A DNA stretch of 41,374 bases from an uncultured Lentisphaerota bacterium (GTDB lineage Bacteria > Verrucomicrobiota > Kiritimatiellia > RFP12 > UBA1067), in the NCBI GenBank assembly GCA_900320855.1, contig ONTV01000003.1:1-41374 (forward strand), in the 5' to 3' direction. The position numbers were made by a program, and so were the translations under genes. Within the stretch, counting starts at the first letter, position 1. The number at the start of each line of letters is the position of its first letter. Positions 1,276 through 22,264 of the stretch are shown here, piece after piece. Under the pieces are notes generated by a model. The model made no database searches and was not told the origin of the DNA. It saw only the letters and a list, made by a program, of their open reading frames with translations.

Positions 1276-1662
1276 TTAGCTGATTTCCTTTCGCTTTTCA
1301 TGCAAACGCCGCTTGACCGACTGGAATAGGCAGACAAGCTCACTGCATTCTTTTACTAGTTGAGAATAGACGTCTTGATCCGGATAAAGCCTCCTTAGCA
1401 ACTCAAGCCAATAGAGTGATTCCGAACACTCTTTGAGAACAATCCCTATCTTGTGGTTGAAATCATCCCTTGATTCGGCTCGATTCGCCTCTCGATAGTT
1501 TGCGCCAACCGAAGAGGCCGACTTGCCAAGCTGATACGAAATAACCTTCGAAGAAACGAACGGCGGCAGGGCATCCAAGGAGCGAAAGACGGCAATGGCG
1601 AAGTCAGACGTTCGGCTCTCCAGACTTTTCTTGAACGCGAGCTTCTCCGCCACACTCCACAT
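1276..1662 (-). CDS. Four-helix-bundle protein (23S rRNA intervening-sequence protein / Avd-like family, PF05635/TIGR02436 type)
   Basis: 128 aa. '...SSVGANYREANRAESRDDFNHKIGIVLKECSESLYWLELL...' matches the family signature (..AN..EG.....DF...L.IA.GS..E....L). Strong SD AAGGGAGGG lies 4 nt before the ATG. Confidence 0.8.
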   Translation of the reverse strand: MWSVAEKLAFKKSLESRTSDFAIAVFRSLDALPPFVSSKVISYQLGKSASSVGANYREANRAESRDDFNHKIGIVLKECSESLYWLELLRRLYPDQDVYSQLVKECSELVCLFQSVKRRLHEKRKEIS

Positions 1663-1680
1663 TTCGCCCTCCCTTATTTC

Positions 1681-1800
1681 TCATTCGCCATTCCATTATT
1701 CCATTCCATTCACTATTCGACCATTCAAACATTCGATTATTCGATTATTCGATTATTTCCCATTCGATCATTCGATTATTCGATTATTCGATTATTTCCC
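1681..1800 (+). repeat. Octamer tandem-repeat array B, same family as A in plus orientation; two sub-blocks each ending CATTCGATTATTTCCC
   Basis: CATTCGATTATTCGATTATTCGATTATTTCCC at 1730..1761, and a longer version at 1761..1800. The last base abuts the stop codon of the 1800..4916 gene. Confidence 0.9.
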
Positions 1801-4800
1801 TAATCAAACTGCCGATAGAACAGGATCCGAGTCCGATGGGGGCGCGGCTGGCCCGCGCCGACATCAGTCTGCGTCTTCGCCGGGTCGCGCCACACAAGCG
1901 CAACCGCGCGCGCGCCCAGCTGCGGCGGCGTCTGCCCGATGGCTCCGCCACCCATCATCAAAGGCTCGGCTCGGACAAAAACAAGGAAGAGCTGCTGCTT
2001 CGCGGCAAACGAGTCCCGCCAGAACCCATAGAGGAACTTGCGGTCGGCATCCGTCAAGTCGCATGTCTCCCCAGACAGGGTCACACCCGCCAATTCGTCC
2101 GCGCTGTTCAGCCCCGCCCAGTCCAGCGCGTCAAACGCGGCCTTCCAGTCACCATCCGAGCGGCTGCGCACGGCACTGCGAATGTTTGCGGCGATGCTCT
2201 TGAGATCATCCCACGCAAACTTCGACGACGAATCGCCCTGCTGGTTAAAGCAGTACTTCCTGTTGAAGTCCTCGGCTTTCCGCTCGGACTCCTGAATCGC
2301 ATTCGGCCCCGTCGTGTTCGTCGAGGCGACCATCCAGTTGTACGGCGTATTGGCAAGCGCGGCCAAGACCGGCGCATCCGAATCCGCATACGGATTCACG
2401 CGGAAGCCCGTCCCCTCGCTCGTGAAGCCAACGCCTCCGAAGTCGTCGCGCGCCGCACTCGGAAGGGCAAATGGACGATAGGTGCGCCAGGCAAAGGCAT
2501 TGTTGGGCGTGGCGGAGAAATTCGCGGCAAAGTCTGTTGCACCGTTTGCAGGCGACACCATGTCGCCGCGAATCTTGTTTCCGCCCGAACTCGTGAGATC
2601 TGTCAAACGCGGCAGAAACGCCAGCTCGTAGACCGACTGGAGATACCCGGCATCGCTCGTCGCCATGAAGATGTCGCGGTCGCGCCCGTCATTCCCGCGT
2701 TGACAGTTGTCGAGCCAGCCCTGTGCGGAGAAGCCGCCGGGCATCACAAACCAATGCTCCGGTGCCCAATTCCAGCGCGGATCGGCGCACATGATTGCCG
2801 ATGTCGTAAAGCCGAAATCCGATCCCGCCGCCGTCGCCGCCGCAATCGTGGTCGGATTGTAGTCAACCGTCACCCCGCCAAAACGCAGAAGCGGATACGG
2901 CGCACCGCCAATCAAGGTTGCATCCGGCCCCATCGTCGTGAAGTTCATGCACGAATTGAGATCATCGTCGTCCCTTATGCAGGCCGGAACGAGGTCAACG
3001 TACTTTCCATTCGAATCCTTCGCGTACAGCCACACGCACATCTGCAGCCGCACGGTCTTTCCCCCGCCCTTCTCAACGAGCGCCCTGAAGTTGGCCGCCG
3101 CCGAATAGTCGGTGTCGACCAAGCCATTCGCCTTCAGTGGCGGCACAAGGCATTCGGTCGGGTCGGCGAGAACGGCCGAACTGTCCGGCTCCTCCGGCAA
3201 CCAGGGACCAAGCGTCCCCGTGATTTCGTTCTTCGTGCGCGTCTGCTTCCATTCGCGCGTCACCTTGAACATCGGGTTGTCATTCAGCCACGTGGCAACC
3301 CGGTTCGCCGCCGAGCCAAAGTTGAGCGAGATCTGCTTGACGGCATCTTCCTCCTTGTCGATGCCCGTGAACGTGAGCGACTGCTCCTGAAAGGGTACAT
3401 AGAAGACGCCATTCTGAACAGTCGCCTCCGAAAAGGCACTCGTGGCACCGAGATGCAGGACATCGTTCGCGTTATCCGTATGAAACGCCATCGCCGTATC
3501 AGAGAAGAACAGTGCGAGACGTCCGCCGATCTTGAACGTGCCGTTCACGTCATCGTCACGGCGGAAGGGAAACGTGACGAGCGTATCGACCTTTCCGCCC
3601 ATGAGTCCGTAGGAAAACATCTTCGGGTCGATGCTGTAGACGTCCGTCCGCCGAACGGTACGCTCAAGCGCCTCGTCGGGCAGATTCGGATTCGTCGGCT
3701 CGACCGTGCCCTTGCTTTCCGAGACCTTCAACTGCGATTTGCCCAGCTGCGGCTGGACGGCCGCGAACATCGGCACCCGCTCCGTCGTCGGGATCGCCAG
3801 AGACAGCGGCACGCTGTCCTCGTCAAGGTAGTCCCAAAGCGCACAGAGACCCAGGCCGCAGACGGACTCAAGAAGCCTGGTCACGCCGTCTGACGAATAG
3901 GTGAGCGCCGTCGTCATCGACCGCGTGGTCTGCAGAAGATCAGTGGCGCGGAACGGTTGCTTGTCGGTGTCGTTCAAGTCGTAGTCGGCGTCGTCGCCAC
4001 TGCCGAGGGACGAGGGGAAGTAGCTGTCGGTCACGAACGCCATGCTCCGCATCATCTCGCTGTCGGTGCCCGTGTTGCTCGTGACGAAGTCCTGTCCCCC
4101 GCGCGAGCCGACAAAGCGGCAGAAGGGGCTGACCACCTGAGACGGGCAGCCGTAGGCGCTACTGCCGCCGTAACCAATCGCGAGATTGAGGTCGGCCAGC
4201 GAGATGAGCGCCAGCTTCGCGCTGTTCGGAAGCAGATGCCCACCGTGGCGATAGGCATCGACGGCATCGACAAAATTGTCCATAAAGGCATCCCACGACG
4301 CGGGATTCACCGTGTAACCGGTATGCGCGGCGTTCTCGAACACATAGGCGAGCGAGACGCGCCCGTTGTCGGACGAATTGCGCCCGACATTTGCCGCAAT
4401 CCGGTTGACGTCAAGGTGGTCGGAAACATCCACGGCGAAGAACGCGAAACGCCCCGCGTCGAAGCCCATCGACTGCCAGCGCGCGGCGGCGCTGTGCCGC
4501 GAATAGTAGCGCGCCTCATTGATCAGTGCCGGAGGCAGGTAGGCAAGCGCCTCCAGCGTCAGGGTCGAGACGGTCTCATCCGCCGAGACGAGACGATTCG
4601 TGCCAATGAAGCAGTGGTTGCGCCAATAGTTGCGCCTCGCCAGATAGGCGCTCTCGTTCTCGGTGTCGGCGCGGGGCGAGGCATAGGTCGTCCCGTTGTC
4701 GCCCATGCCGGGGAACGGATCGTTTCCGATGGCAATGTCGATCTGGTCGATTGCCTCGGCGAGCGCGGCCTTAACGAGGTGGCGCGACGACGAGGTGCGA

Positions 4801-4916
4801 CGCAGGTAACTCGACGGCAGGCGCGAAGCGCGCATGTACGCCGAGAAGGCGACGGCCGAGATCACCATGAAGGAGACCATGCCAAGGACAATGAGAAGGG
4901 CCGAGCCGCGTTTCAT
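1800..4916 (-). CDS. Giant (1038 aa) GspK/PilX-like pseudopilin-associated protein with an N-terminal membrane anchor
   Basis: 'MKRGSALLIVLGMVSFMVISAVAF' resembles the GspK N-terminus. ATGA overlap with the upstream GspG-like gene. No other domain recognised by eye. Confidence 0.6.
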   Translation of the reverse strand: MKRGSALLIVLGMVSFMVISAVAFSAYMRASRLPSSYLRRTSSSRHLVKAALAEAIDQIDIAIGNDPFPGMGDNGTTYASPRADTENESAYLARRNYWRNHCFIGTNRLVSADETVSTLTLEALAYLPPALINEARYYSRHSAAARWQSMGFDAGRFAFFAVDVSDHLDVNRIAANVGRNSSDNGRVSLAYVFENAAHTGYTVNPASWDAFMDNFVDAVDAYRHGGHLLPNSAKLALISLADLNLAIGYGGSSAYGCPSQVVSPFCRFVGSRGGQDFVTSNTGTDSEMMRSMAFVTDSYFPSSLGSGDDADYDLNDTDKQPFRATDLLQTTRSMTTALTYSSDGVTRLLESVCGLGLCALWDYLDEDSVPLSLAIPTTERVPMFAAVQPQLGKSQLKVSESKGTVEPTNPNLPDEALERTVRRTDVYSIDPKMFSYGLMGGKVDTLVTFPFRRDDDVNGTFKIGGRLALFFSDTAMAFHTDNANDVLHLGATSAFSEATVQNGVFYVPFQEQSLTFTGIDKEEDAVKQISLNFGSAANRVATWLNDNPMFKVTREWKQTRTKNEITGTLGPWLPEEPDSSAVLADPTECLVPPLKANGLVDTDYSAAANFRALVEKGGGKTVRLQMCVWLYAKDSNGKYVDLVPACIRDDDDLNSCMNFTTMGPDATLIGGAPYPLLRFGGVTVDYNPTTIAAATAAGSDFGFTTSAIMCADPRWNWAPEHWFVMPGGFSAQGWLDNCQRGNDGRDRDIFMATSDAGYLQSVYELAFLPRLTDLTSSGGNKIRGDMVSPANGATDFAANFSATPNNAFAWRTYRPFALPSAARDDFGGVGFTSEGTGFRVNPYADSDAPVLAALANTPYNWMVASTNTTGPNAIQESERKAEDFNRKYCFNQQGDSSSKFAWDDLKSIAANIRSAVRSRSDGDWKAAFDALDWAGLNSADELAGVTLSGETCDLTDADRKFLYGFWRDSFAAKQQLFLVFVRAEPLMMGGGAIGQTPPQLGARAVALVWRDPAKTQTDVGAGQPRPHRTRILFYRQFD

Positions 4917-5392
4917 CGCTCATCCTCCGAAAGACGGTAAAAGTTCGGCAGATAGTAACCCGTGTTGAGTGCGCCTGTCGCCGTCTTGACCTTCAGCGAA
5001 ACACCCTTTGACTTGATTGTGACAAGGTACGGATGTCCCCACGGATCGAGGATCTTGCCGCCCGACGCAAGCGCCGCCTGCAGAAGGACAGGCATCTGCC
5101 CGCCGCTCTGCGGGCCGCTGCCATCGCCCAGCAGAAAGCCAAGCGTGTCCTTTCCGGCCTCGGCGCGCGTCAGCGTCGGCAACTCGTAGGTTCCGCTGCT
5201 GCCGTAATTCTCGTAGGCTAGAATCGCCTGCGAAATCACCTTGACGTCACTCGTCGCCTTCTGGACGCGCGCGCGGTGGCGCGCGGCACGGACGGACGTC
5301 GTCATCGCACCCATCAGAACGGCGATCATGCCGACCACCACCAGCAGTTCCACCAATGTGAAACCCCTTCGCCTACCATTCGCTCGGATCAT
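4913..5392 (-). CDS. GspG-like (major pseudopilin type) protein
   Basis: 'RRGFTLVELLVVVGMIAVLMG' followed by '...SDVKVISQAILAYENY...' and 'DPWGHPYLV', the classic T2SS-G pattern. Start taken at the M of MIRANGRRRGF (5392) rather than the ORF-caller start. Confidence 0.75.
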   Translation of the reverse strand: MIRANGRRRGFTLVELLVVVGMIAVLMGAMTTSVRAARHRARVQKATSDVKVISQAILAYENYGSSGTYELPTLTRAEAGKDTLGFLLGDGSGPQSGGQMPVLLQAALASGGKILDPWGHPYLVTIKSKGVSLKVKTATGALNTGYYLPNFYRLSEDER

Positions 5393-5876
5393 CTGGAAAA
5401 CTCCATATCGCCTGCCAATCGTCAACATTGTTGTTCGGCCCGCCGCTCATTACGTTGACCGTATAGTTTTGGACACGCCCCGGCGTCTGCGCATTGCCGA
5501 CGTTGATGAGACGCAAATCACTCGGCTTTAAGTTGGATGCGTTGAGCCTCGAGCGCAAGATCAGCGCCCGGTACTTGCCGCCCTCTTCGGACTTCACCCG
5601 AGATCCTGGTGCATCACACGCGCGATCACGCAAATCGCCATTCTCATCCCAAAGGCCCACCGTGCGGTAAATCTCGTTACCGTAGGCAAAGGCATTGTCG
5701 GCCTCCTCACGCAGTTCCGCCATGTTGTCGCGCACATCATCCATGTCGGAGACACCCGCAACGCCAATGCGCCAGGCGATGGATGACTGGTTGAAGATCA
5801 TGGTCAGAATCGTGACGAGCATGCCCAAGAGCATGGACGCGACGAGCAGTTCTATGATTGTAAAACCCCTTCTCAT
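5373..5876 (-). CDS. Minor pseudopilin-like protein (GspJ-like)
   Basis: 'MRRGFTIIELLVASMLLGMLVTILTMIF' N-terminal methylation motif and helix. Overlaps both neighbouring genes. Confidence 0.7.
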   Translation of the reverse strand: MRRGFTIIELLVASMLLGMLVTILTMIFNQSSIAWRIGVAGVSDMDDVRDNMAELREEADNAFAYGNEIYRTVGLWDENGDLRDRACDAPGSRVKSEEGGKYRALILRSRLNASNLKPSDLRLINVGNAQTPGRVQNYTVNVMSGGPNNNVDDWQAIWSFPDDPSEW

Positions 5877-6415
5877 TTGTCTGCAACCCCCTGAAACCTG
5901 ACTTCGGTGTAGAAGAGCGGCATACCCATGAGCTGCCCGAACATATCTGACTTGACCGCGCGGAAGGCGATCTGGACAACCGCCGAATCCGTCTCGTGCA
6001 AGACGACAAGGCCACAGCTCATGCCCGAACCGGACAACGCCGACGAGGGGAAGCTCCGATCGCCATCATAGCTGCCGTCAAAGCTTAACGCACCCATCAC
6101 CGAAGTAAATGCGCTTTGCGCCTTCGCCTGCGGATCGGTCGTCACAATGCCGTTCGAATTGAAGTAGCCCTTCCAGCCATCCTTGCCCGGATAACTGCCA
6201 AGGTTGCGGAAGCTCGTCCATGTCACATTCGTCGACGACAGGGCCATCACGAGCGGACTCATCACGCTGTCGGCAAGCGCCGTCGCGGCGACGTCCTCGC
6301 GACTCTGCCGGTTCTCACGAAATCCAAGGGCGTACAGCCCGACGACCGAGAGGATGCCACCCGCCATGATCAGCATGGCGAGATTCACCTCAATAAGCGT
6401 AAATGCCTTTCTCAT
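5873..6415 (-). CDS. Minor pseudopilin-like protein (GspI-like)
   Basis: 'MRKAFTLIEVNLAMLIMAGGILSVVGLY'. ATGA overlap with the downstream gene. Confidence 0.7.
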   Translation of the reverse strand: MRKAFTLIEVNLAMLIMAGGILSVVGLYALGFRENRQSREDVAATALADSVMSPLVMALSSTNVTWTSFRNLGSYPGKDGWKGYFNSNGIVTTDPQAKAQSAFTSVMGALSFDGSYDGDRSFPSSALSGSGMSCGLVVLHETDSAVVQIAFRAVKSDMFGQLMGMPLFYTEVRFQGVADK

Positions 6416-6416
6416 G

Positions 6417-7349
6417 TTAGTTCAAGTCCTTCGTCGGGTCTGAGCTCTGTCCAACCGACCGCGCAACCAGATTGCCGCTCGCATCGGGGCGAAGCGAATA
6501 GACGGTAACCGCCGTGCGCGTGCCCAACCCGGACGAGCCCGAAACACCATTGCCCTGGTTCAAGCCCACATTGAATGTCATCGTCCCCGCCGGACGAATC
6601 GGGTCTGCCACGTCCGTCGCATAGGACGAACCGAAAATGTACCCATGTGGCAATTCGAGACGCGCGAATTCAAAGCCATAGGCCATACCGGCCTGCCAAG
6701 TCACGCCACCCGCATCTTCGACCTTGAAGGCATAGACCTTGAGCGCGCCCTGCGTCTCGCCCGACGGCACGTCAGACAGTTTCGTGCCATTGGCATCCAA
6801 CGCGGTCAGGACGCCGTTCTCGCCCGACAGGTAGAGCGGCGTCAATTCCTTGCCATAGACCTTCTGATCGACAATCGAGCGCTTAAGCTGCGTCGTGTCC
6901 TCGATGTCCGAGAGACGGTCGATCGGATAGAGGTACATCGTGTTTTTCCGGCTATCGCCGCCGCCTTCGCCCGCCGAGGCACTGCCGGATGTCGAGTCGT
7001 CCGTCTGGTACGAGAGATTGAGATCTGCGAACTCGTCGTAGAGGTACTGCCCGTCGGCCCGCGTGATGCGCCCCTGACGGCGAATCGCAACCGCTTTGCC
7101 GACGACAATCTCGGTGCGATCATCGTCCGCAGCACGAAGCGTCTCGTTCCAAAAGTAGATGGCTGTCGGTTGCCGGTCGATCTGCGCGCGCTGGTAGGCC
7201 GCGCGCACAAGCGCATTGACATTGTCCAGGACGCCGCGTTCGGCCATGCCGCGTTGCATCGCCCGGTAACCGCCAACCGACACCGTACCGAGAAGGCCCA
7301 TGATGCCGATCACAACGAGCAGCTCAATCAGTGTGAACGCCTTTTTCAT
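6417..7349 (-). CDS. Prepilin-type protein (GspH/FimT-like)
   Basis: 'MKKAFTLIELLVVIGIMGLLGTVSVGGYRAMQRG'. Start set at the ATG at 7349; the ORF-caller extension to 7481 overlaps the upstream gene. Confidence 0.7.
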   Translation of the reverse strand: MKKAFTLIELLVVIGIMGLLGTVSVGGYRAMQRGMAERGVLDNVNALVRAAYQRAQIDRQPTAIYFWNETLRAADDDRTEIVVGKAVAIRRQGRITRADGQYLYDEFADLNLSYQTDDSTSGSASAGEGGGDSRKNTMYLYPIDRLSDIEDTTQLKRSIVDQKVYGKELTPLYLSGENGVLTALDANGTKLSDVPSGETQGALKVYAFKVEDAGGVTWQAGMAYGFEFARLELPHGYIFGSSYATDVADPIRPAGTMTFNVGLNQGNGVSGSSGLGTRTAVTVYSLRPDASGNLVARSVGQSSDPTKDLN

Positions 7350-7353
7350 GGCC

Positions 7354-7926
7354 TTAGTTGTTCCCCTTGTAGTCGTCACGCCAGCCGACACGCAGCTGAT
7401 CGGTTGCGATTGAATAGCCCATGCCAAAGCGCACGAACCTGCCATTCGACGCATGCGGATAGCCGAAGTACATCTCGGCAAGTTTCATCTTCTTGGACGA
7501 CTTGCGCGTACCCCGAATGGCGCTCATAAAATCCATGCCTGCGCCACGTCCACCGGATGTATCGCCATCCGACCGCGAGACCCAAAGCCCCGAGACGTCG
7601 ATGAGGGGATTGCCCTCCTTCGCCGACTCGACGATCTTTCGCACGCATTCGCGCACCTCGTTCGCCGTGAGGTCATACTGGTTCTCGTCGATGTCGTCTG
7701 AACCCTTCTTATGGTTGCCGACCTTTCCCTTGAAGCTGATCGGCCACTCGTCGTTCTGCGCATAGTACGCCGCGAGGCCCGACTGAACCAAGGAGACGAG
7801 AGCCTCGGCGCGACGCGTTCGTGACGCTTTCATCGATTCGGACGCAGCCGTCGTCACGATACCCATCAGGATCGCAATGACCCCAATGACCATCAGAAGT
7901 TCAACAATGGTAAATCCCCTCTTCAT
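7354..7926 (-). CDS. Prepilin-type N-terminal cleavage/methylation-domain protein
   Basis: 'MKRGFTIVELLMVIGVIAILMG'. The ATG at 7926 overlaps the TGA of the upstream gene by 1 nt (TGATG). Confidence 0.75.
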   Translation of the reverse strand: MKRGFTIVELLMVIGVIAILMGIVTTAASESMKASRTRRAEALVSLVQSGLAAYYAQNDEWPISFKGKVGNHKKGSDDIDENQYDLTANEVRECVRKIVESAKEGNPLIDVSGLWVSRSDGDTSGGRGAGMDFMSAIRGTRKSSKKMKLAEMYFGYPHASNGRFVRFGMGYSIATDQLRVGWRDDYKGNN

Positions 7927-8666
7927 CACTTTACCTGCTGTGTCTGTCCGAAAGTCCACGAATAGACGTCGTCCGCCCGACGGCCCTTCGAATACGGCCA
8001 AGGCTGACCCTTGTTGCCGCCCGACTTGCCAATGCACCAGACAATCGCCGTCGCTCGGACGTCCACCCCCTCGCCACCCACGCTCGCGCCCTTGATGATG
8101 CCATCGCCGTCAAGGTCAAGCGCGTAGTGGAGGATATGATCCTTGACAGTCGTCGAGCCAAAAACCTTGTCGGAAAGCGTTGCGGCCGATCCCTTGCGCT
8201 TGATCGCCGCCGTCGCCCACGGCGTAACGACGCCGAAGCGGTCAAGGCCAGCGAGTTTGCCGTTCTCTGTCGTGAGCGACAGGTACTTCGTCGTTCCCGC
8301 GACGAGCGCGTAGGCCGTCTCGGCGTCCAGTTCGCCGTCCGACGTGCCATTTCGCGCAAGCCGTCGCGGCCAGGCCCCCTCCTGCTGAAAGAGCGCCGTG
8401 AGCGCCGTCGCGACATTCGAGACGAGTTCCTGCGCCTTGGCCTTCTCGGCGGACTTTGTCATCTGCGCGAAACCGCCAATTGACGCGCCAACCAGCACCG
8501 CAATGATACCGACGACAACGAGCATCTCAATGAGGGTAAAGGCTGGGCGAGAAGAAATAATCGAATGCTTGAATAATCGAATGGTCGAATGAGAATTCGT
8601 CGAATAATCGAATGTTCGGTCGTTCGAATGTGCATCCGAGTTCTGAATCTTGTTCGTCTTTTTCAT
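7926..8666 (-). CDS. Prepilin-type protein with a long repeat-encoded leader
   Basis: 'RPAFTLIEMLVVVGIIAVLVG' has no nearby canonical start. The best start is the ATG at 8666, preceded by GGAGGA plus 4 nt. The leader 'MKKTNKIQNSDAHSNDRTFDYSTNSHSTIRLFKHSIISS' is encoded by array C. An alternative start is at 8696. Confidence 0.7.
   Translation of the reverse strand: MKKTNKIQNSDAHSNDRTFDYSTNSHSTIRLFKHSIISSRPAFTLIEMLVVVGIIAVLVGASIGGFAQMTKSAEKAKAQELVSNVATALTALFQQEGAWPRRLARNGTSDGELDAETAYALVAGTTKYLSLTTENGKLAGLDRFGVVTPWATAAIKRKGSAATLSDKVFGSTTVKDHILHYALDLDGDGIIKGASVGGEGVDVRATAIVWCIGKSGGNKGQPWPYSKGRRADDVYSWTFGQTQQVK
8549..8630 (-). repeat. Octamer tandem-repeat array C (minus orientation), ending CATTCGATTATTTCTTCTC
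   Basis: The minus strand reads ACATTCGAACGACCGAACATTCGATTATTCGACGAATTCTCATTCGACCATTCGATTATTCAAGCATTCGATTATTTCTTC. Confidence 0.85.
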
Positions 8667-8689
8667 CAATTCCTCCATATTCTCTCGCT

Positions 8690-8820
8690 TATTCAATTAT
8701 TGATCATTCCCATTCGATTTATTCAAACATTCGATTATTCGATCATTCGACCATTCGATTATTTCCCATCTCCCATTCCCCATTCGATCATTCAAACATT
8801 CGATTATTCGATCATTTCTC
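8690..8820 (+). repeat. Octamer tandem-repeat array D (plus orientation), ending CATTCGATTATTCGATCATTTCTC at the stop codon of the 8819..9994 gene
   Basis: CATTCGATT/CATTCGATC/CATTCGACC units with interspersed CCCAT(C/T)TCCC units. Divergent with respect to array C. Confidence 0.85.
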
Positions 8821-9994
8821 AATGACTCATATTCACGACATCGTCTTCCGTCCAGTAGGCAGCACCTGCCGCCGCATTGGCATCTAGCGACTCACGCGAA
8901 ACCCACGGCGGGAAGGTCTTCCCGTTCGGGCCCGCCGACCACAGCACATACGATTGGTAAGGAGCCGGCGAATAGTAGTAAAAGTCGTTCTGCCATCCAT
9001 CGACGACCGTGACGCCATCCAGAATGTACTGACCAGAGGTCGAGTCGTTTGCGTAGCCTCCGGGAGAATAGATTTCCGTCTCTGTCGAAACAATCGGCCC
9101 TCCTGCGTCCTGCGACTCCGGATCGCGGATGTCAACCCCATAGAACGTCGTGGGGTGACCATATCGGCAGATCCCCTCCAGATTTGGTAGCCACCGCGCA
9201 CAGACAGATTGGGATGGAATATTCGCCACATGGGCCAAGTCGGATGGCGTTTCGCTATTGGCATAGTTTTGTACGCTCTGCCAATTGGCAAACCGCCTCC
9301 CCGACAAGGGGTCACACGGCAGGGTGTTGTTGTCAAGCCACTGCTCATGATCACGGAAGAGAGACGACTCCGAGTCCATCATCACGAGATAGCGCGGCAG
9401 AAGAAAGCTCATCAGACCGAATTGGAAAATCTGCACTTCGCGCCAATCGCTCTCGTTGTTGTAGGCGCTCAACCCCGTCACCTCAACGGAGAAGCCGCCG
9501 CCGTATTTGTTTTTCTGGTTCTCGCTGAGACCGCTGGCATTAGATTCTTGGACAAGCAAGTCAGAAGTTGCCTGCGCCCACTGCCGCCAGTTGGCGTCTT
9601 GCGGGAAGGGGAACTTACAGGCTAACGGCTGGGCTCGACAGGCGGCCTGAACCTGCTCCCAGTCATCCGCTTCGTCCTGCGAATTGTTCACCGAATGACT
9701 GCTACGGTCGAACCAACTCCACTTCAAGTCTTGCTCATCGTCTACGCTCTGGATGCCGTGACCAGAGACCTTGAGCCGATAATTGCGGCTCCCTTGTAGA
9801 CGGACGGGCGGATAGGAGCCGAATGCCGCATAGTAGCCAGAAAGACAGTTTTCAAGTTTCTGCAGCCGCGCAACCGTCGTCGTCCGAGCCGACTGGCTTG
9901 AACCGATTGACGACAGGCGGAACGTCATCGTCATCAGCGTGACGAGCACGACGACGACAACCAGCAGTTCGACGAGTGTGAAACCTTTTTTCAT
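8819..9994 (-). CDS. Large GspG-family prepilin-like protein (391 aa), first gene of the pseudopilin operon
   Basis: 'MKKGFTLVELLVVVVVLVTLMTM' and C-terminal 'DGWQNDFYYYSPAPYQSYVLWSAGPNGK' (the T2SS-G 'DPWGxPY...S.G.DG' pattern). Start set at the ATG at 9994. Confidence 0.75.
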   Translation of the reverse strand: MKKGFTLVELLVVVVVLVTLMTMTFRLSSIGSSQSARTTTVARLQKLENCLSGYYAAFGSYPPVRLQGSRNYRLKVSGHGIQSVDDEQDLKWSWFDRSSHSVNNSQDEADDWEQVQAACRAQPLACKFPFPQDANWRQWAQATSDLLVQESNASGLSENQKNKYGGGFSVEVTGLSAYNNESDWREVQIFQFGLMSFLLPRYLVMMDSESSLFRDHEQWLDNNTLPCDPLSGRRFANWQSVQNYANSETPSDLAHVANIPSQSVCARWLPNLEGICRYGHPTTFYGVDIRDPESQDAGGPIVSTETEIYSPGGYANDSTSGQYILDGVTVVDGWQNDFYYYSPAPYQSYVLWSAGPNGKTFPPWVSRESLDANAAAGAAYWTEDDVVNMSH

Positions 9995-10003
9995 TCTTCG
10001 CGC

Positions 10004-10012
10004 ATTATACCA
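10004..10012 (-). promoter_or_regulatory. Extended -10 (TGGTATAAT) for the pseudopilin operon, 9 nt upstream of the ATG at 9994
   Basis: Reverse complement of 10004..10012 is TGGTATAAT. Confidence 0.5.
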
Positions 10013-10046
10013 CATCCCCCCAAATCCCCGCAAGCACCCCACGAAA

Positions 10047-10167
10047 AAATGAGAATTCAATGCGGAATTCTTTTTCGGCTGCCCCCGCGTGCTGCTACCA
10101 CTCCCGCCTCGCCTGCGTCTGTCACCACGTTGGCTTTTGCCACAAAGAACACACGCGCGCTTCGCGC
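10047..10167 (+). repeat. 121-bp dispersed repeat, copy 1
   Basis: 116 of 121 positions identical to 11182..11302. Contains the hairpin AGAATTC-AATGCG-GAATTCT followed by TTTT. Confidence 0.9.
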
Positions 10168-10373
10168 GCCACAAAAGAGAACGGAGACAAGAAGTAGAGA
10201 GAAAAGAGCAGGGGGGTAAGGTGTAAGGAGAAATTGACCACCACACTTACTCCCTCCTACTTTCTCCTTGCTCCTTCCTCCTTCTTGCTCCTTCTCGTCG
10301 AGAACGGGGCGAAGCGCTTTCGTGTTTCGACGAGCGGCTTGGACGCTTTCGTGTCCCGCGCCAGCGGGCTTTC

Positions 10374-14264: not shown

Positions 14265-14421
14265 GCCTGTTCCTCTCTCGTTCCTCGTTTGCTCTCCGTG
14301 TTCTCGCGCCGCGTTTCCTATTCCCGCGCGGCCGGACGATTCGCCAGCTCGACGCGAACCGTCGCGCCGCGCACGATGTCCGCATGCCGCAGCGGTTCGC
14401 ACGCGCCCTTCGCCCTCGCGT

Positions 14422-15852
14422 TCATCGCGACGCTTTCTTGCGAATGACGGGAATCTGCGCGGCCGCGACGGACTGTCCGAGGCGACGCGCCTTCTCGTCG
14501 GGCATGAAGACGTCGATCTTTTCGGCCCATTCAGGATAGACGTCCGCGAGAAGCGTCTTTGCCGTCTCGACGATCACCTCGCCGCCAAGGCCCGACGTCA
14601 CGCGCCCGAGGACCATCAGGTTCTCGTAGTCGTAGAACTCGCTGTACCACGGAATCGCGTGCGCAAGGAAGCGCCCGATCTGCACGTAGACCTTGAGGGC
14701 GCGCGCGTCGCCCTTCTCCATGGCCTCCTGCACGGTCTTCAGACGCTCCGGCAGCTTCATCGCCTTCGGAAACTTGAAGCCGTAGTCCTCGGCCAGCCAG
14801 TTGACGGCCTGCTGCGAGAACGCCATCGCGCCGACACCCGCGTCTCCCGACCACTCGTCCTTCGGCGCGCACGGATTGAAGTCCACCGGGGCGAACGCGA
14901 GTTCGCTGATGCGTCCCGTCATGCGGCCCTTCGGATCGACGTAGCCGACGGCCTCGGACGAACCCATCGCGACGCCGAGGATGCCCTTGCGGCCCATCGT
15001 GATCATGCCCGCGAGCGCCGTCACGTCGCCATCGTTGTAGACGGCAAACGGCACGCCCCAGTCCTTCTCGATGCGGTTGAAGAGGTTCTGCGCCTCCGGG
15101 AACTTCTCCGGATTCTTCTCCTTCACCGCGCGCAGGAGCGAGGCGAGGCCGAACTTCTGCCCGACGAGGACGCCCGCCGTCGAGCCGCCGATCGCATCGA
15201 CGCGCGGCAGGGACGCGGCCGCCTCCTTGAGGCCGTTCGTCAGCATCGCGTAGTGGTATTCGGGGTCGGCGTTGTTGCGCGGATCCCACGGGAACTCCTT
15301 CGAGAAGACGACCTTCCCCTTGTTGAGGGCCGAGATCTTGAAGTCCGACGCGCCGAGGTCGAAGCCCAGGCGGCAGCCGTCCGCCACCGTCTTGACGAGG
15401 GCCGTCTTCTCGCAGGCCTCCGGCATTTTCGCGAGCGGCACGACGACGGCCTCGACGGGACGCCCGTAGATCGACGTGAAGAAGTCGTAGTCGAACGCGC
15501 GCGCGCCCTTCTTCGTGTAGGCCTTCGCGATAGGCTTGACGATCGCGTCCGGGCCCGCGAGGTAGAGTTTCCAGCCGCCCGCCGCCCAGACGATGAACTT
15601 CGCGATGCGCTCGACGACGAGCGAAACGAACTTCGTCGCCTCCGGATCGAGCCGCTTCGGAACCGGCAGGTCGTAGCGGAAGATCTGGCCGTTCTCGCGC
15701 TCCCACGCGATCGCGACGACCTGGGCGTTCGCCTTCGTGTCGATGCCGTCGTAGATTTGCCAGAGCGCGCTCATCGGCGCGACGAACTCGGCGTGGTGGT
15801 GGCAAGAGCACGTCGCCGTGCCGCCATGCTTCTTTCCGCAGGAACAGGCCAT
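14422..15852 (-). CDS. ROK/ASKHA-type sugar-kinase-like protein with an extra N-terminal domain and an N-terminal Cys/His cluster
   Basis: 'GFDLGASDFKISAL', 'AIGGSTAGVLVG', 'VYNDGDVTALAGM' and 'GVAMGSSEAVGYV' resemble ROK/glucokinase phosphate and adenosine motifs. The N-terminus is 'MACSCGKKHGGTATCSCHHH'. SD AAGGAG lies before the ATG at 15852. Confidence 0.6.
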   Translation of the reverse strand: MACSCGKKHGGTATCSCHHHAEFVAPMSALWQIYDGIDTKANAQVVAIAWERENGQIFRYDLPVPKRLDPEATKFVSLVVERIAKFIVWAAGGWKLYLAGPDAIVKPIAKAYTKKGARAFDYDFFTSIYGRPVEAVVVPLAKMPEACEKTALVKTVADGCRLGFDLGASDFKISALNKGKVVFSKEFPWDPRNNADPEYHYAMLTNGLKEAAASLPRVDAIGGSTAGVLVGQKFGLASLLRAVKEKNPEKFPEAQNLFNRIEKDWGVPFAVYNDGDVTALAGMITMGRKGILGVAMGSSEAVGYVDPKGRMTGRISELAFAPVDFNPCAPKDEWSGDAGVGAMAFSQQAVNWLAEDYGFKFPKAMKLPERLKTVQEAMEKGDARALKVYVQIGRFLAHAIPWYSEFYDYENLMVLGRVTSGLGGEVIVETAKTLLADVYPEWAEKIDVFMPDEKARRLGQSVAAAQIPVIRKKASR

Positions 15853-16805: not shown

Positions 16806-16869
16806 AATTCGGCGAAAAAGTGCAAGTTGGACGCAGATTGTTGATAACTTTTTGATAAGTGTAGACATG

Positions 16870-16960
16870 ATTTAATATCTTTTCACTTGACAAAAATTTA
16901 AATCATTAAAAATTAATAAATATACTTCAAAACTGATAAAAATAACATTTTCCGTGTTGC
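16870..16960. other. Extremely AT-rich island, DNA-unwinding-element-like, candidate oriC component
   Basis: ACAAAAATTTAAATCATTAAAAATTAATAAATATACTTCAAAACTGATAAAAATAACATTTT in an otherwise GC-rich genome. Flanked by TGTTGATAA (16839..16847), TTTTGATAA (16850..16858) and TTGTTCACA (16979..16987). Confidence 0.4.
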
Positions 16961-17002
16961 ATAACCTGTGTATATTTTTTGTTCACAATCCTGTTGAGAA
17001 TG

Positions 17003-17011
17003 TGCTATAAT
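17003..17011 (+). promoter_or_regulatory. Extended -10 (TGCTATAAT) for mnmG, 6 nt upstream of the ATG at 17018; possible -35 TTCACA at 16982..16987
   Basis: Read directly from the sequence. Confidence 0.55.
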
Positions 17012-17017
17012 GAGGCC

Positions 17018-19219
17018 ATGAAACTGAAGGATGCCTTTGAGGTTCTTGTCGTGGGCGGTGGCCATGCCGGCGTCGAGGCGGCGCTTGCCGCCGCGCGCAT
17101 GATGGCCCGTACCTTGCTCGTCACGACCCGTCGTGACGCGATTGCTCGTATGCCCTGCAATCCGTCAATTGGCGGTCTCGCCAAAAGTCACCTGGTCTGC
17201 GAACTGGATGCCCTCGGCGGCGAAATGGGCGTGAATGCCGACCAGACGGCCCTTCAGGCAAAGACGCTCAACTTTAGCCGCGGCCCTGCCGTCTGGGCGA
17301 CGCGCTGCCAATGCGCCAAGGCGGAATACGCCGCGCGAATGCAAGCCGTCGTCTCCGCACAGGACAACCTAACTGTCCTTGAGGATGCCGTTGTCGGCAT
17401 TTTCACGGACGCTTCGCGGCACGTCATGGGCGTCCAGACCGAAAACAATGGTCTCATTCGCGCCGCGACCGTCATTCTGACAACGGGGACAACGCTTCGT
17501 GGACGCGTCTGGATTGGCGACAAAAGCCAAGAAAGCGGCGGAGATGGACGCCCTGCCGTGAATCTTCTTTCAAAAAGTCTTGCGAATCTCGGATTTGAAT
17601 TGATCCGGCTTAAAACCGGTACGCCTCCACGACTCAAGGCCTCGACCTGCGACTTTTCGCGTTGCATTCGACAGGATGGTGATACTCCACGACCTTTGTT
17701 CCACGTGGAACAACAAAGCAAATTTCAGATTTCAAATTTCAAAAGTCTGTTCCACGTGGAACAAAATTCGTTTGTCGCTCGTGGCCAACATAATTCGTCA
17801 ATAGCCTGTGGTGCCCCGTCGTTCAATTGTGTTCAACAGAAAAATTCGTCGACTAGATGTGTTCCACATGGAACAATAAAACCAAACAGCAATCAAGAGA
17901 TATGTTCCACGTGGAACAATGAAGTTAATCGGTTAGACGTGTTCCACGTGGAACAAAATTCGTCATCCAATCGTGCTCGTCAAAATTTGTCATTCTTCTG
18001 TGTTCAAAAGCAAAGTTTGTCGAATAACCCTGTTTTGAATGAACGATCCGATGTTTTGACTGCGCCAAATTCGTCATGCTCAAGTAACCAGCCCGAAAAT
18101 TCACACCAACAACCGTGTTCCACGTGGAACAATCTGCTGACAGGTCTACCAAGTCTGCCTTGTTGGATGACGCAGACAAATCCAAAAACACACGAAATCA
18201 TTCGTGCAAATCTCGACAAGTCATCTCTCTATGGCGGCAAAATCATCGGAACCGGCGTTCGCTACTGTCCAAGCATCGAAGACAAGATCGTTCGCTTCGC
18301 GACAGTCGAACATCACCATGTCATTCTCGAACCGGAAGACAGCCTGGGCGAAGTCATCTATCCGAATGGACTGAGTTGCTCGCTTCCCGAAAACGTTCAG
18401 CGCGAAATGGTCCACTCGGTGGCGGGACTCGAAGAGGCCGAGTTCTTGGCCTACGCCTATGCCATTGAATATGACAGCATTGATGCGCGTGAACTCCGCC
18501 ATACGCTTGAGTCAAAGCGCATTTCGGGGCTCTACTTTGCTGGACAGATCAATGGAACGACCGGATACGAGGAAGCCGCTGGACAAGGCATTCTCGCCGG
18601 AATCAACGCCGCCTTCGCTGTCCGAAAGGCGCAGCCGTTTATTTTGAGTCGACAAGATGCCTATCTCGGCGTGATGATTGACGATCTTGTCACAAAGGGA
18701 ACAGACGAACCCTATCGCATGTTTACAAGCCGCGCCGAGCGACGCCTGATTCTACGGCAGGACAATGCCCGCTATCGCCTCTTGTCGGCCGCCAAGCGCG
18801 TCGGCATTTTGTCTGATGAAATCATCGCGGCCCGCGAAGCGGAATGGGCCATCATCCAAGTAAAGCTTGCCGATCTCACAAAGAAGAAGGGGAGAGTCGT
18901 TCAGTCCGAAACCGAGAAACTTGACTCTCCTGACATGACAACGGCGCAAGGACGAATTGATCGTGAAGTAATGATTATGCACCATTACGCCCCCTACATT
19001 GCGCAAGAAGAAAAAGCCGCCGCGCAAGCCAGGAAGGACGAGGCGCTCGCCATTCCCCGTTGGCTTGACTATGACAAATGCACAGGCGTCCGCTACGAGA
19101 GCCGTGAAAAGCTGAAGAAGTACCGTCCAGAGACACTGGCGCAAGCCAGCCGCATTCCCGGCGTCAACCCCGCCGACATTGCCGTCCTCGCCGTTCTGAT
19201 CAAACGCGGTCATGTCTAA
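17018..19219 (+). CDS. mnmG: tRNA uridine 5-carboxymethylaminomethyl modification enzyme MnmG (GidA), carrying an internal insertion of about 145 aa
   Basis: '[20 protein letters not shown]', 'RLKTGTPPR', '[15 protein letters not shown]' and '[18 protein letters not shown]'. 733 aa, against about 620-630 aa for typical MnmG. Start set at the ATG at 17018. Confidence 0.95.
17697..17712. other. parS: parS-like site 1, TGTTCCACGTGGAACA (perfect 16-bp palindrome)
   Basis: Matches the parS consensus tGTTnCACGTGnAACa. Confidence 0.75.
17748..17763. other. parS: parS-like site 2, TGTTCCACGTGGAACA
   Basis: Exact repeat of site 1. Immediately followed by AAAATTCGT. Confidence 0.75.
17860..17875. other. 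parS: parS-like site 3, TGTTCCACATGGAACA (one central mismatch)
   Basis: 15 of 16 positions match sites 1, 2, 4, 5 and 6. Confidence 0.6.
17903..17918. other. parS: parS-like site 4, TGTTCCACGTGGAACA
   Basis: Exact repeat. Confidence 0.75.
17940..17955. other. parS: parS-like site 5, TGTTCCACGTGGAACA
   Basis: Exact repeat. Immediately followed by AAAATTCGTC. Confidence 0.75.
18116..18131. other. parS: parS-like site 6, TGTTCCACGTGGAACA
   Basis: Exact repeat. Confidence 0.75.
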
Positions 19220-19370
19220 CGTGCAGGCGCATTTTGTGTCCTCTGTGGCATAAGAACAATATATCCATTCGAATCTAACGCCACATTTACGCTTCCACCG
19301 GATAGCACAAATCTGAATGAATAGGATTTAAAATTCGTGTAATCTTTGAAAATTCGTGGACATATTCTAG

Positions 19371-19393
19371 TTATAAACATTAAATGTTGATAA
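19371..19393. promoter_or_regulatory. 23-bp near-perfect palindrome TTATAAACATT-A-AATGTTGATAA upstream of dnaA; the arms are DnaA-box-like TTAT(A/C)AACA
   Basis: The 11-bp arms differ at 1 position. The right arm contains the 9-mer TGTTGATAA, which also occurs at 16839 and 24531, and as its reverse complement at 24466. Confidence 0.45.
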
Positions 19394-19441
19394 CTTGAAG
19401 ACATAAGTTGATTTCTCGTTGCGCATTTCGTGCCCATTTTA

Positions 19442-19450
19442 TGGTATTAT
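19442..19450 (+). promoter_or_regulatory. Extended -10 (TGGTATTAT) for dnaA, with a 28-nt A-rich leader and no obvious SD
   Basis: Read directly from the sequence. Confidence 0.5.
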
Positions 19451-19478
19451 GTAGGACTTTACGAGTAGTAGACAAAAA

Positions 19479-20903
19479 ATGAGCGAAACGATCGACATCA
19501 AGTCAAAGGAGACGTGGGAAAGGGCGAAGCAAATCTACCTTTCCACGTTATCGTCCGCCGCCGAGCGCGGGCAGGTCGAGCGCTATTTGGAGACGATTAC
19601 GTCCGTCATGCACGAAAACGGTGTCTTCGTCATCTTTGTCACGAACGACTACTCGGCCAGTTTCCTGCGCGACAAGTATTCGGACAAGCTGAAGAAGTGT
19701 CTTGAACTCGTTTCGTCGGAGGGGAAGGTCGACATCGAGTTCCGCACCAGCGAACGCGCAAAGCCGGCAATCGTCGTCCCGTCTGAACCGCCGCCGGTCG
19801 CGGCATCGGTCTCCCCGCCGCGCGCGCACGCCAAGGCGCCGCCGCTTGCCTCGACCATGCCCCTCAACGAAGAGTACACGTTCGACAATTTCGTGAGCGG
19901 CAAGTCGAACAGCTGGGCGCTCGCTGCCGCACAGGGCGTCGTCTCCAATCCCGGCAAGAGCGGCTACAACCCGCTCTTCATTCATGGCGGCACGGGCCTC
20001 GGCAAGACGCACCTCATGCAGGCAATCGGCAACGAGCTCAAGAAGAAGAACCCCGCGCTGAACATCTGCTATCTCACGGCCGAGACGTTCCTGAACGAAT
20101 ACGTGAACGCTCTGCAGAACGGTAACCTCGAAAGCTTCCGCAAGCGCTACCGCAAGATGGACTTGCTGATGGTCGATGACGTGCAGTTCCTTCAGAAGGG
20201 CAGACAGTTCCAGGAGGAGTTCTTCAACACGTTCAACGCCCTCCAGCAGGCGCAGCGCCAGATCGTCATGACGTCCGACGTCGCTCCGAAGAACCTGCCG
20301 TCCATCGAGACACGCCTCATCTCGCGCTTCGAGGGCGGCATGGTGCAGGAGATCGAGTCACCCAACTACGAGACGCGCCTCGCGATTCTGAAGAAGAAGT
20401 CCGAGGCGATGGTGCCGTCCATCCCCGACAACGCGCTTGAGTTCATCGCCGACACGATCAAGAGCCACGTGCGCGCGATGGAAGGCGCGTTGAACCGCGT
20501 CCGCATCTTCCGCATGGTCGAATCGACGACGCCACTCACGAATGACGTACTGACGCACATGCTCCGCGACTACATCGAGAAGGAGAAGTCGCTCCGCAGC
20601 CTGACCGTCGAGGAAATCCAGCAGTCCGTCGCGAAGAGGTTCCACGTCTCGATTGACCAGATCCTCTCCGCTGAACGGACGCAGTCGCTCGTCACCCCGC
20701 GCCAGATGGCCATGTACATCTCGCGCAAGTACACGACGAGGAGCCTCCCGGAAATCGCGCAGTCGTTCGGCAAGACGCACGCCACGATTCTCCACGGCGT
20801 CAAGAACATCGAAAAACGGCTCGACGTCGAGCCCGACCTCAAGTCGATTCTCAATGAAGTGCTGAACGAATTCGGCTGTTCGCTCAAGGACAACCTCGAT
20901 TGA
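19479..20903 (+). CDS. dnaA: Chromosomal replication initiator protein DnaA
   Basis: 'NPLFIHGGTGLGKTHLMQAIG' (Walker A), 'LLMVDDVQFL' (Walker B) and domain IV '...RQMAMYISRKYTTRSLPEIAQSFGKTHATILHGVKNIEK'. Confidence 0.97.
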   Translation: MSETIDIKSKETWERAKQIYLSTLSSAAERGQVERYLETITSVMHENGVFVIFVTNDYSASFLRDKYSDKLKKCLELVSSEGKVDIEFRTSERAKPAIVVPSEPPPVAASVSPPRAHAKAPPLASTMPLNEEYTFDNFVSGKSNSWALAAAQGVVSNPGKSGYNPLFIHGGTGLGKTHLMQAIGNELKKKNPALNICYLTAETFLNEYVNALQNGNLESFRKRYRKMDLLMVDDVQFLQKGRQFQEEFFNTFNALQQAQRQIVMTSDVAPKNLPSIETRLISRFEGGMVQEIESPNYETRLAILKKKSEAMVPSIPDNALEFIADTIKSHVRAMEGALNRVRIFRMVESTTPLTNDVLTHMLRDYIEKEKSLRSLTVEEIQQSVAKRFHVSIDQILSAERTQSLVTPRQMAMYISRKYTTRSLPEIAQSFGKTHATILHGVKNIEKRLDVEPDLKSILNEVLNEFGCSLKDNLD

Positions 20904-21128
20904 CAACTGGCGGAAGAACTGAAGACAGGTTGAAGACAACTCGGCAAGATATGAACAGAAACGAACAGGTCAGAGCCATCCGTCAACTTTCCTCGTCAGG
21001 ATGTCGAACGGGCCTTCAACAGGGTGAAAGTTGCTTTCAGCCCGTTTTTAAAGGGGGCGCCGCGACTTGTCAACAGTATCGACACACCTAATAGTAATAC
21101 AATCACACTTTCTTTAGTCAGTAGTATT

Positions 21129-21137
21129 TGATACAAT
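21129..21137 (+). promoter_or_regulatory. Extended -10 (TGATACAAT) for dnaN; 32-nt leader with SD AGAAGGAAA
   Basis: Read directly from the sequence. Confidence 0.45.
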
Positions 21138-21169
21138 TCAATGACACGACGCATCAGAAGGAAATAAAA

Positions 21170-22264
21170 ATGAAATTCAAGATCGTTCGCTCCAAATTCC
21201 TCGAAGGGCTGAAGTCCGTCCAGAACATCGTCGGCGGCAAGGCTTCGCTCGCGATTCTCCAGAATGTCCTCCTGGAGGCCAGAGGGCAGGAGATCGTGAT
21301 GACGACGACCGACCTCGACATCTCGATCAAGGCCGTCTGCCCGTGCGAGGTCATTGAGAAAGGCGGCACGACGATTCCCGTGAAGCTCCTCTTCAACGCG
21401 ATTTCGAAGGTGGCCGAAGGCGAGGTCGAGTTCGAGACGGACACGAAGGACCGGGCGACGATTTGCGCAGGGAACACGAAGTTCAAGGTCGCGGGCCTTC
21501 CCGAATCCGAGTTTCCGAAGCTTCCGCAGGACGAGGAGGCGTTCGTCTACACGATTCAGCAGGCGACGTTCCGCGACATGTTGCGCAAGGTCTCCTACGC
21601 GGCGAGCCAGGACGACACGCGCCGGACGCTCAAGGGCGTTCTCCTGAGCTTCAAGGACTCGAAGCTCACGATGGTCGCGACGGACGGTCGCCGCCTCGCG
21701 CTTGTCGAGCAGGAGATCGAGTTTCCGAAGGACGCGGAGAAGGACATCATCCTGCCGTCGAAGGCCGTCGGCGAACTCCAGCGCTCGCTGAACGGCGAGG
21801 GCGACCTGTCGATGATGGTGCAGAAGTCGCAGATCTGCTTCAAGCTCGAGAGCGTGATGATCTACTCGAAGCTGATGGACGACGCCTACCCGAACTACCG
21901 TCAGGTCATTCCCGTCGAGCCGAAGGAGCGCATCGAGGTCGATCGCCAGCTGCTGCTGGACGCGCTCGACCGTGCGAGCGTCATGACGATGGACGAGGCG
22001 CATTCGACGAAGCTCATCTTCTCGGAAGGGAAGCTCACCGTCACGTCGGCCGCGTCCGACATCGGCGAGGCGAAGGACGAGGTGCCAATCAAGTACGCCG
22101 GCGAGAAGATCGAGATCCTGTTCAACCCGTCCTACGTGATGGACTGCCTCAAGTCGATTGACGATGACGAGGTGACCATGAACCTGACGGACGGACATTC
22201 GCCGGCGGTGATCAAGTGCTCGATTCCGTTCCTCTACGTGCTGATGCCGCTGCGGATCAACTGA
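21170..22264 (+). CDS. dnaN: DNA polymerase III beta sliding clamp
   Basis: 'MKFKIVRSKFLEGLKSVQNIV...', 'RRTLKGVLL', 'MVATDGRRLA' and 'NPSYVMDCLK'. Start set at the ATG at 21170. Confidence 0.95.
   Translation: MKFKIVRSKFLEGLKSVQNIVGGKASLAILQNVLLEARGQEIVMTTTDLDISIKAVCPCEVIEKGGTTIPVKLLFNAISKVAEGEVEFETDTKDRATICAGNTKFKVAGLPESEFPKLPQDEEAFVYTIQQATFRDMLRKVSYAASQDDTRRTLKGVLLSFKDSKLTMVATDGRRLALVEQEIEFPKDAEKDIILPSKAVGELQRSLNGEGDLSMMVQKSQICFKLESVMIYSKLMDDAYPNYRQVIPVEPKERIEVDRQLLLDALDRASVMTMDEAHSTKLIFSEGKLTVTSAASDIGEAKDEVPIKYAGEKIEILFNPSYVMDCLKSIDDDEVTMNLTDGHSPAVIKCSIPFLYVLMPLRIN

Follow-up and report, generated by a model that had tools for sequence, protein, structure and literature searches.

Can the centromere of a bacterial chromosome be carried inside the reading frame of a conserved enzyme? 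The question is raised by a 41,374-bp stretch of DNA from an uncultured Lentisphaerota bacterium (assembly GCA_900320855.1, contig ONTV01000003.1, positions 1 to 41,374, forward strand), which as a whole is referred to here as the window. A first-pass annotation, made from the sequence alone, had described in it a dense array of six parS sites, the sites that load the partition protein ParB, inside the gene mnmG (also called gidA) next to dnaA. The answer that we reach, with a probability of roughly 0.8, is that all six palindromes function as parS sites of the chromosome, predicted to bind ParB and to serve as origin-proximal ParB loading sites within the mnmG coding sequence.

The palindromes and their host gene

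A scan of the window with the palindrome TGTTCCACGTGGAACA recovered the same coordinates as the first-pass annotation, with five exact copies at 17697..17712 (parS-1), 17748..17763 (parS-2), 17903..17918 (parS-4), 17940..17955 (parS-5) and 18116..18131 (parS-6), and a sixth copy with one mismatch (CACATGG) at 17860..17875 (parS-3). The array spans 435 bp (17697-18131), and the starts of consecutive sites are irregularly spaced (51, 112, 43, 37 and 176 bp, and hence 37-176 bp). Six copies stand against 0.01 expected by chance, and none of 100 shuffled sequences reached this number. We also tested the degenerate consensus tGTTNCACGTGNAACa. The 16-bp palindromes of the array fit this consensus, and with up to three mismatches allowed, a single 3-mismatch match at 14009 was the sole further hit in the 41,374 bp. 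The palindrome TGTTCCACGTGGAACA is identical to parS2 and parS3 of Pseudomonas aeruginosa, perfect palindromes that have the highest ParB affinity and suffice for segregation when they are located near oriC (PMC4368675). Some of the P. aeruginosa sites are also intragenic (PMC4368675). The identity with parS2 and parS3 bears out the annotated claim that the half-sites of the palindrome are bona fide.

The annotation had also pointed to decayed half-sites. Such half-sites are indeed present (TGTTCAAC at 17830 and TGTTCAAA at 18001), but each differs from parS at 7 of 16 positions, both lie within a duplicated spacer unit, and they are indistinguishable from chance matches. Because of these mismatches and their membership in the duplicated spacer, we left them out of the parS count. 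The internal duplication comprises copy A (17748..17855, plus strand), made up of a parS and a AAAATTCGT... spacer, and copy B (17940..18026, plus strand). The two copies (repeat families D3 and D4) are 75-76% identical, with 16-mers that are 100% identical. No tandem period was found in the array, in which Tandem Repeats Finder reported only a 7-bp microrepeat.

The host gene, mnmG (17018..19219, plus strand), is an intact open reading frame (ORF) of 733 aa, the length that had been annotated. Pfam searches identified the GIDA domain (E=3e-141) and the C-terminal domain SAM_GIDA_C (E=4e-23), and a comparison with the MnmG sequences in the PDB gave E=1e-152. The AT-rich block noted earlier after ...GDTPRPLF was confirmed. 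Its GC content is 0.42, lower than that of the gene halves on either side of it (0.60 and 0.54) and of the window (0.63), and the block splits the GIDA match in two. The alignment to solved MnmG structures ends at residue 229 (...RPLFH) and restarts at residues 376-379 (GLPSLPCW...), so that 146 residues take the place of the 10-13-residue loop of Aquifex and Escherichia coli MnmG. We refer to this Ser/Asn/Gln-rich, AT-rich segment (17690..18142, plus strand, codons 225-375) as the expanded loop. An in-frame insertion of about 145 codons, as annotated, is therefore present as an extra block, but it is not a one-off novelty, being part of a lineage-wide trait of a native loop (see below).

Over the array, stop codons are absent from the gene frame and number 4-8 in each of the five other frames. 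The parS sequence itself contains no stop codon in any frame, as had been pointed out before. When the spacers were shuffled with the parS copies held fixed, the gene frame remained open in only 0.04% of cases (P ~0.0004). This rarity, taken together with the absence of stops, indicates that the insert is selected to stay translatable. In an AlphaFold2 model built with 63 homologues, residues 225-375 had predicted local distance difference test (pLDDT) values of about 25-30 and lacked secondary structure, and the strands that flank them were placed confidently. The core of the model matched the MnmG structures of Chlorobium, Aquifex and E. coli with target-normalised template modelling (TM) scores of 0.80-0.84. 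The columns of the GTTGYEEAA motif and the motifs of the flavin adenine dinucleotide (FAD)-binding and catalytic regions were invariant in the homologue alignment, and so were F228, H229 and E231 (the F-H-x-E at parS-1) across the 63 homologues. Judged from this model, the insert is most plausibly a disordered loop on the surface of the enzyme, which would tolerate it, in agreement with the placement that the annotation had proposed on an otherwise normal MnmG.

Two further observations concern mnmG itself. Its codon usage is AT-shifted gene-wide, with a GC content at third codon positions (GC3) of 0.62 in the N-terminal and 0.59 in the C-terminal part; GC3 is 0.84-0.88 in the neighbouring genes dnaA, dnaN and rlmL and 0.58-0.60 in the mnmG genes of relatives. 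Promoter-like sites were not found inside the insert. One such site, a consensus match only, is located at 16982..17011 on the plus strand (TTCACA-18-TATAAT, extended TG, 11/12 matches). It ends 7 nt 5' of the mnmG ATG, so that the mnmG mRNA would be leaderless or nearly so.

The array is situated 1.3 kb upstream of dnaA (19479..20903, plus strand; Pfam Bac_DnaA and Bac_DnaA_C). The gene order is mnmG, dnaA, dnaN (21128..22264, plus strand; Pfam DNA_pol3_beta domains 1-3), and then a gene for an RlmL-type methyltransferase. The minimum of the cumulative GC skew is at about 20-21 kb, at a distance of approximately 3 kb from the array. Gene orientation changes at 16.9 kb, with the likely genes to the left all on the minus strand and those to the right mostly on the plus strand. 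The switch point coincides with an AT-rich intergenic region (16869..17017, GC 0.26), a candidate origin or promoter region. A second AT-rich region between mnmG and dnaA (19220..19478, GC 0.36) is a candidate for oriC or for the dnaA promoter region. DnaA-box-like 9-mers occur at 16839 and 19385 and are not significant. In most related loci, dnaA or dnaN was likewise found within 10 kb of mnmG. By dnaA adjacency, GC skew, orientation switch and the same linkage in relatives, the array clearly lies inside the origin region, as the annotation had maintained.

Conservation and copy-number change among relatives

Depending on the frame, the 16-mer is translated as FHVE(Q/H), CSTWN or VPRGT. In the window, parS-1, parS-2 and parS-5 are read FHVEQ, parS-4 and parS-6 are read CSTWN, and the imperfect parS-3 is read VPHGT. 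The ortholog of parS-3 in a strain-level relative (L081) is perfect and is read VPRGT. We examined the codons behind these peptides in 80 species-representative genomes that were picked solely by MnmG similarity, with locus GC contents between 38 and 65%. FHVE(Q/H) was encoded by exactly TTCCACGTGGAACA in 33 of 36 cases, and exact parS nucleotides stood behind 11 of 14 CSTWN and 8 of 9 VPRGT peptides. At the wobble position just past the site, A, T and C all occur freely, whereas the wobble bases within the site are nearly invariant. In the comparison of the window with L081, 95 of 96 parS columns were identical, compared with 280 of 324 spacer columns (Fisher P=1e-4). The same contrast is seen within the window, where the internally duplicated unit has diverged to about 75% identity and its 16-mers have stayed perfect. 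As judged from these substitution patterns, selection is shown to act on the DNA sequence of the sites and not on the peptide.

The first-pass annotation had suggested an alignment of MnmG as a lineage check. This check was run; besides delimiting the insertion against the solved structures, it revealed parS in the loop lineage-wide. All of the best 120 MnmG matches (579-909 aa) have an FHVE(Q/H), CSTWN or VPRGT peptide at the same loop. The number of copies per homologue in this set was one in 3 proteins, two in 62, three in 29, four in 18, five in 7 and six in 1. At the DNA level, parS was found within the mnmG loop in 28 loci of the 80-genome set, under the labels Kiritimatiellae/Kiritimatiellia, Pontiellaceae, Lentisphaeraceae, Victivallales, Candidatus Spyradenecus, "PVC group" (Planctomycetes, Verrucomicrobia, Chlamydiae) and Verrucomicrobia. 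The cultured Pontiella sulfatireligans F21 is among them. With up to one mismatch, the loop regions of these 28 loci (1-6 copies each, 11.6 kb in all) contain 59 sites, compared with 7 in the other 465 kb, and those 7 are mostly located immediately upstream of mnmG. In loci of Akkermansia, parS was not found near mnmG. The mnmG ORF was intact in every relative examined.

In the minimal, two-site state, each edge of the loop has a single parS. In the window, the 5' boundary is represented by parS-1, which is present in nearly all relatives, and the 3' boundary by parS-6, which directly precedes LPxLPCW and is the last site in relatives. The two-site form fits into a protein of normal length, as illustrated by ...PLFHVEQSNSNVPRGTLPELPCW in a 579-aa MnmG. 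The distribution of the sites shows that parS in the loop is ancestral to a large PVC lineage, with two boundary sites as the typical state. The window array is the expanded end of this lineage-wide trait, a native loop that always has parS and usually has two.

Some long MnmG proteins have a different expansion. In six of them (P0051, P0046, P0025, P0041, P0032 and P0035; 780-909 aa), only the two boundary parS are present, and between them lie 130-220 aa of another repeat, TDYHGLTR...SATLNTE..ENGRHGE...LRASVPPCE. The loop thus gathers other in-frame repeated DNA as well.

Three close relatives of the window organism (L084, L082 and L081) have 2, 4 and 6 parS and MnmG proteins of 639, 672 and 736 aa, respectively. 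Their flanking proteins (DUF711, LuxS, a metalloenzyme, DnaA, DnaN, RlmL and ThiC) are 98-100% identical to those of the window, and their MnmG cores 96-98%. In DNA alignments, the strains differ by clean in-frame blocks that are bounded by parS or by the repeated spacer motif AAATTCGTC. From this comparison, the window therefore represents the expanded end of a strain-level polymorphism. Copy number is shown by the alignments to change fast, between 2 and 6 among near-identical strains while the frame is kept.

With up to one mismatch, the AAATTCGTC motif has six plus-strand copies inside the insert (17764-18075), where it is translated N-S-S. It lies directly 3' of parS-2 and parS-5 and marks the junctions of the between-strain in-frame indels. 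Another form, AAATTCGTG, is present in two copies in the mnmG-dnaA intergenic region (19331-19358), and the window total of the motif is 19 versus 11 expected. The identities also mean that the MnmG cores diverge slightly faster than the flanking proteins; in a further locus, L005, the corresponding values are 80-89% and 90-98%. In addition, a GH92 glycoside hydrolase gene (727 aa) is present between luxS and a 476-aa gene in two of the strains (L082:825-3008 and L084:5243-7426). It is absent from the window (14402-14422), so that gene content is polymorphic about 3 kb from the array.

ParB and the competing explanations

As annotated, parAB are absent from the window and mnmG is followed by dnaA. 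Neither ParA, ParB nor RsmG was found to be encoded in the window by Pfam searches of 35 likely genes, or, for ParA and ParB, by tblastn with Soj and Spo0J. The ParB search was extended to the window plus 85 loci, using tblastn with B. subtilis Spo0J and Soj (which served as probes only) and a hidden Markov model (HMM) from 8 ParB proteins. ParAB were detected beside mnmG in seven loci only, all of them non-PVC. Since no ParB gene of the lineage was found in the window or near mnmG, we infer the binding of ParB to the array from other evidence, namely the identity of the sites, their origin location, their conservation at the DNA level, and the association of parS, mnmG and parAB elsewhere.

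Several points weigh against the assignment of the array as a ParB loading site. In none of the PVC loci searched was ParA or ParB present within 10 kb of mnmG, and the cognate binding protein is assumed. The translation of the loop and the activity of the MnmG that contains it are predicted. E. coli-type DnaA boxes with up to one mismatch were not significantly enriched in the window (four, versus 2.2 expected). Finally, the extra copies could be nearly neutral, given that 2-6 copies are found among near-identical strains.

The lack of a ParB gene in the sequence searched would also be compatible with operators for a protein other than ParB, for example one that regulates replication initiation or the expression of mnmG or dnaA, and the sites are situated between two AT-rich regulatory regions beside dnaA. 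However, all 16 positions match the pan-bacterial ParB site, other phyla in the data set carry the same sequence beside parAB and mnmG, and the sites are located within a gene and not at a promoter. We therefore consider operators of this kind unlikely. The variation in copy number among strains, together with the foreign repeats that the loop accepts in the long-loop homologues, could point to a selfish or neutral palindromic repeat, similar to repetitive extragenic palindromes (REP) or miniature inverted-repeat transposable elements (MITE), that has invaded a tolerant loop. A dispersed repeat had already been named in the annotation as the finding that would speak against its proposal. Such dispersal was not observed, with no further copies in the 41 kb of the window and only the 7 in the 465 kb of related flanks. 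Moreover, lineages that carry the labels of different phyla have kept the 16-mer perfect at the same two boundaries of the loop, while their spacers have diverged. An invading repeat is thus very unlikely.

Explanations at the level of RNA or protein were also weighed. Each site can fold into a hairpin (6-bp stem, 4-nt loop), and two sites score as terminator-like, as would be expected of mRNA hairpins that govern the translation or stability of mnmG. If structure were selected, compensatory changes would be permitted. The sequence, however, does not vary and equals parS, and the number and spacing of the sites are variable, which makes this role highly improbable. The invariance of F228, H229 and E231 in the 63 homologues would fit a functional protein repeat in MnmG, in which FHVEQ and the other peptides are selected and the resemblance to parS is incidental. 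But the same 16 nt give three unrelated peptides in three frames, and synonymous positions in the site are near-invariant from 38 to 65% GC when the adjacent wobble position is free. In addition, the region is predicted to be disordered, and other phyla have the same 16-mer in non-coding DNA outside mnmG. An invariant 16-mer in three frames is predicted neither by a peptide-level nor by an RNA-hairpin explanation, and we give the protein repeat hardly any weight. No point was found in favour of an assembly artefact or of a split mnmG pseudogene, the other outcome that would have undermined the annotation. The ORF is single and uninterrupted, the same architecture recurs in over 100 independent assemblies and is seen in ENA, Logan, NCBI and JGI data, and the core motifs and fold of MnmG are conserved. 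The probability of such an artefact is practically nil. An intein, an intron and a mobile element were rejected as candidates, since the block lacks an accompanying ORF and keeps the frame, and copies of the 16-mer are not scattered.

If the array acts as a set of ParB loading sites, established ParABS biology suggests the following sequence of events. ParB dimers would bind each 16-bp palindrome, bind CTP, close into a clamp and slide onto the flanking DNA. A partition complex would thus be assembled beside dnaA and oriC, on which ParA and SMC would act, and ParA-driven segregation and SMC loading would follow. Multiple sites within 435 bp may raise the loading rate. The sites would be hosted in a surface loop of MnmG that tolerates any in-frame sequence, and would be translated into the disordered Ser/Asn/Gln-rich segment, with the MnmG fold left intact. 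Copy number likely shifts when identical 16-mers or spacer repeats recombine unequally or when slippage occurs between them. Frameshifted recombination products would then be purged by selection on mnmG, and the in-frame ones would survive.

Among the other genes of the window, about 10 co-oriented genes on the minus strand (172-10246) form a cluster, several members of which have a prepilin-type N-terminal methylation motif. The cluster, which also includes a 1038-aa protein without a Pfam match, is reminiscent of a type II secretion or pseudopilin-like system. Within the same interval, a gene for a 23S rRNA-intervening-sequence protein is located at 1276-1662.

Comparison with other parS systems

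The sites parS1-4 of P. aeruginosa likewise form an origin-proximal cluster, and parS2 and parS3 have the same 16-mer. In P. aeruginosa, however, four sites are scattered over kilobases and lie in separate genes or between genes, whereas here six sites are packed into 435 bp of one codon-preserving loop. Unlike the P. aeruginosa sites, those in the mnmG loop are conserved in position throughout the lineage and polymorphic in copy number. B. subtilis has a single parS within the coding sequence of spo0J (parB) near the origin. This site is translated and close to the origin, as in the window, but there is no array and no loop expansion, and the host gene belongs to the partition operon. The sopC centromere of the F plasmid consists of 12 tandem 43-bp repeats, which are regular and non-coding. 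Like the mnmG array, it gathers many ParB-type sites within about 0.5 kb. The spacing in the window is irregular and the DNA is translated, and head-to-tail repeats of constant period, as in sopC, were not observed.

In other phyla (records labelled Bacteroidetes, Fibrobacterota, Neomarinimicrobiota, Chlorobiota and others), parS was found outside mnmG, often with parAB nearby. The sites are located 7-140 bp upstream of mnmG, about 10-200 bp past its stop codon, or at both positions; loci in which they bracket mnmG include L041, L046, L058, L063, L065, L069 and L079. The flanking of mnmG by parS in these phyla marks the gene as a widespread parS landmark. The mnmG-linked parS of other phyla are non-coding, whereas in the lineage of the window they are in the reading frame and parAB are no longer adjacent.

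The density of the array had been described as unusual. It is indeed high, but not unique. A scan of metagenomes for two perfect parS 15-45 bp apart returned at least 120 stretches. Among the stretches listed (at least 120), 14 had the sites inside mnmG and about 22 adjacent to it (about 36 together), and about 50 had them next to parA or parB. Arrays of 5-10 perfect parS also exist elsewhere. The close pairs, which are common in metagenomes, and these larger arrays mean that density alone does not set the window apart.

Four metagenomic contigs of 27-30% GC carry 6-10 perfect in-frame parS in a gene for a Wzy_C-like membrane protein of the O-antigen-ligase family (L174:2298-4550, plus strand; L198:10711-12939, minus strand; L175:3-1343, plus strand; L151:217-1878, minus strand; 450-750 aa). 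These genes have no stops in one frame and 8-48 in the others, their parS are read in all three frames, and the sites lie between hydrophobic segments. On L198, the host gene adjoins gyrA, and two shorter Wzy_C paralogues without parS are found nearby. The Wzy_C-like case differs from that of mnmG in its unrelated host gene, its very AT-rich genome and its gyrA neighbour, and suggests that a centromere array has come to be hosted in a coding loop on more than one occasion. We are not aware of a description of the Wzy_C-like case.

It is possible, although we would not yet call it probable, that hosting a centromere in frame in a tolerant loop of a conserved gene is a recurrent selected strategy, adopted in mnmG by genomes under the labels Kiritimatiellota, Lentisphaerota and Verrucomicrobia and independently in the Wzy_C-like gene of a very AT-rich lineage. 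Selection on the host gene, its transcription, or both would then stabilise or regulate ParB loading, the array would be tuned rapidly by in-frame recombination, and the loop would be a by-product. If this were true, the AT-shifted codon usage of mnmG would be a footprint of the partition complex.

The biology of parS and ParB and the occurrence of single intragenic parS were known already. The literature search yielded no description of an array that is held in frame in a single enzyme loop, occupies the same codons throughout a deep lineage and nevertheless varies from 2 to 6 copies between near-identical strains. For annotation, the finding provides the rule that FHVE(Q/H), CSTWN and VPRGT repeats mark translated parS, and that a long MnmG in these phyla should not be taken for a mis-assembly. 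The loop shows how a dual constraint, for a DNA-binding site and for an open frame, shapes a sequence. It offers a natural system for studying how a stretch of DNA can be transcribed and translated and still let ParB load and slide, and it allows testing whether centromere copy number is selected. Cultured Pontiella strains with the two-site form make the idea directly testable.

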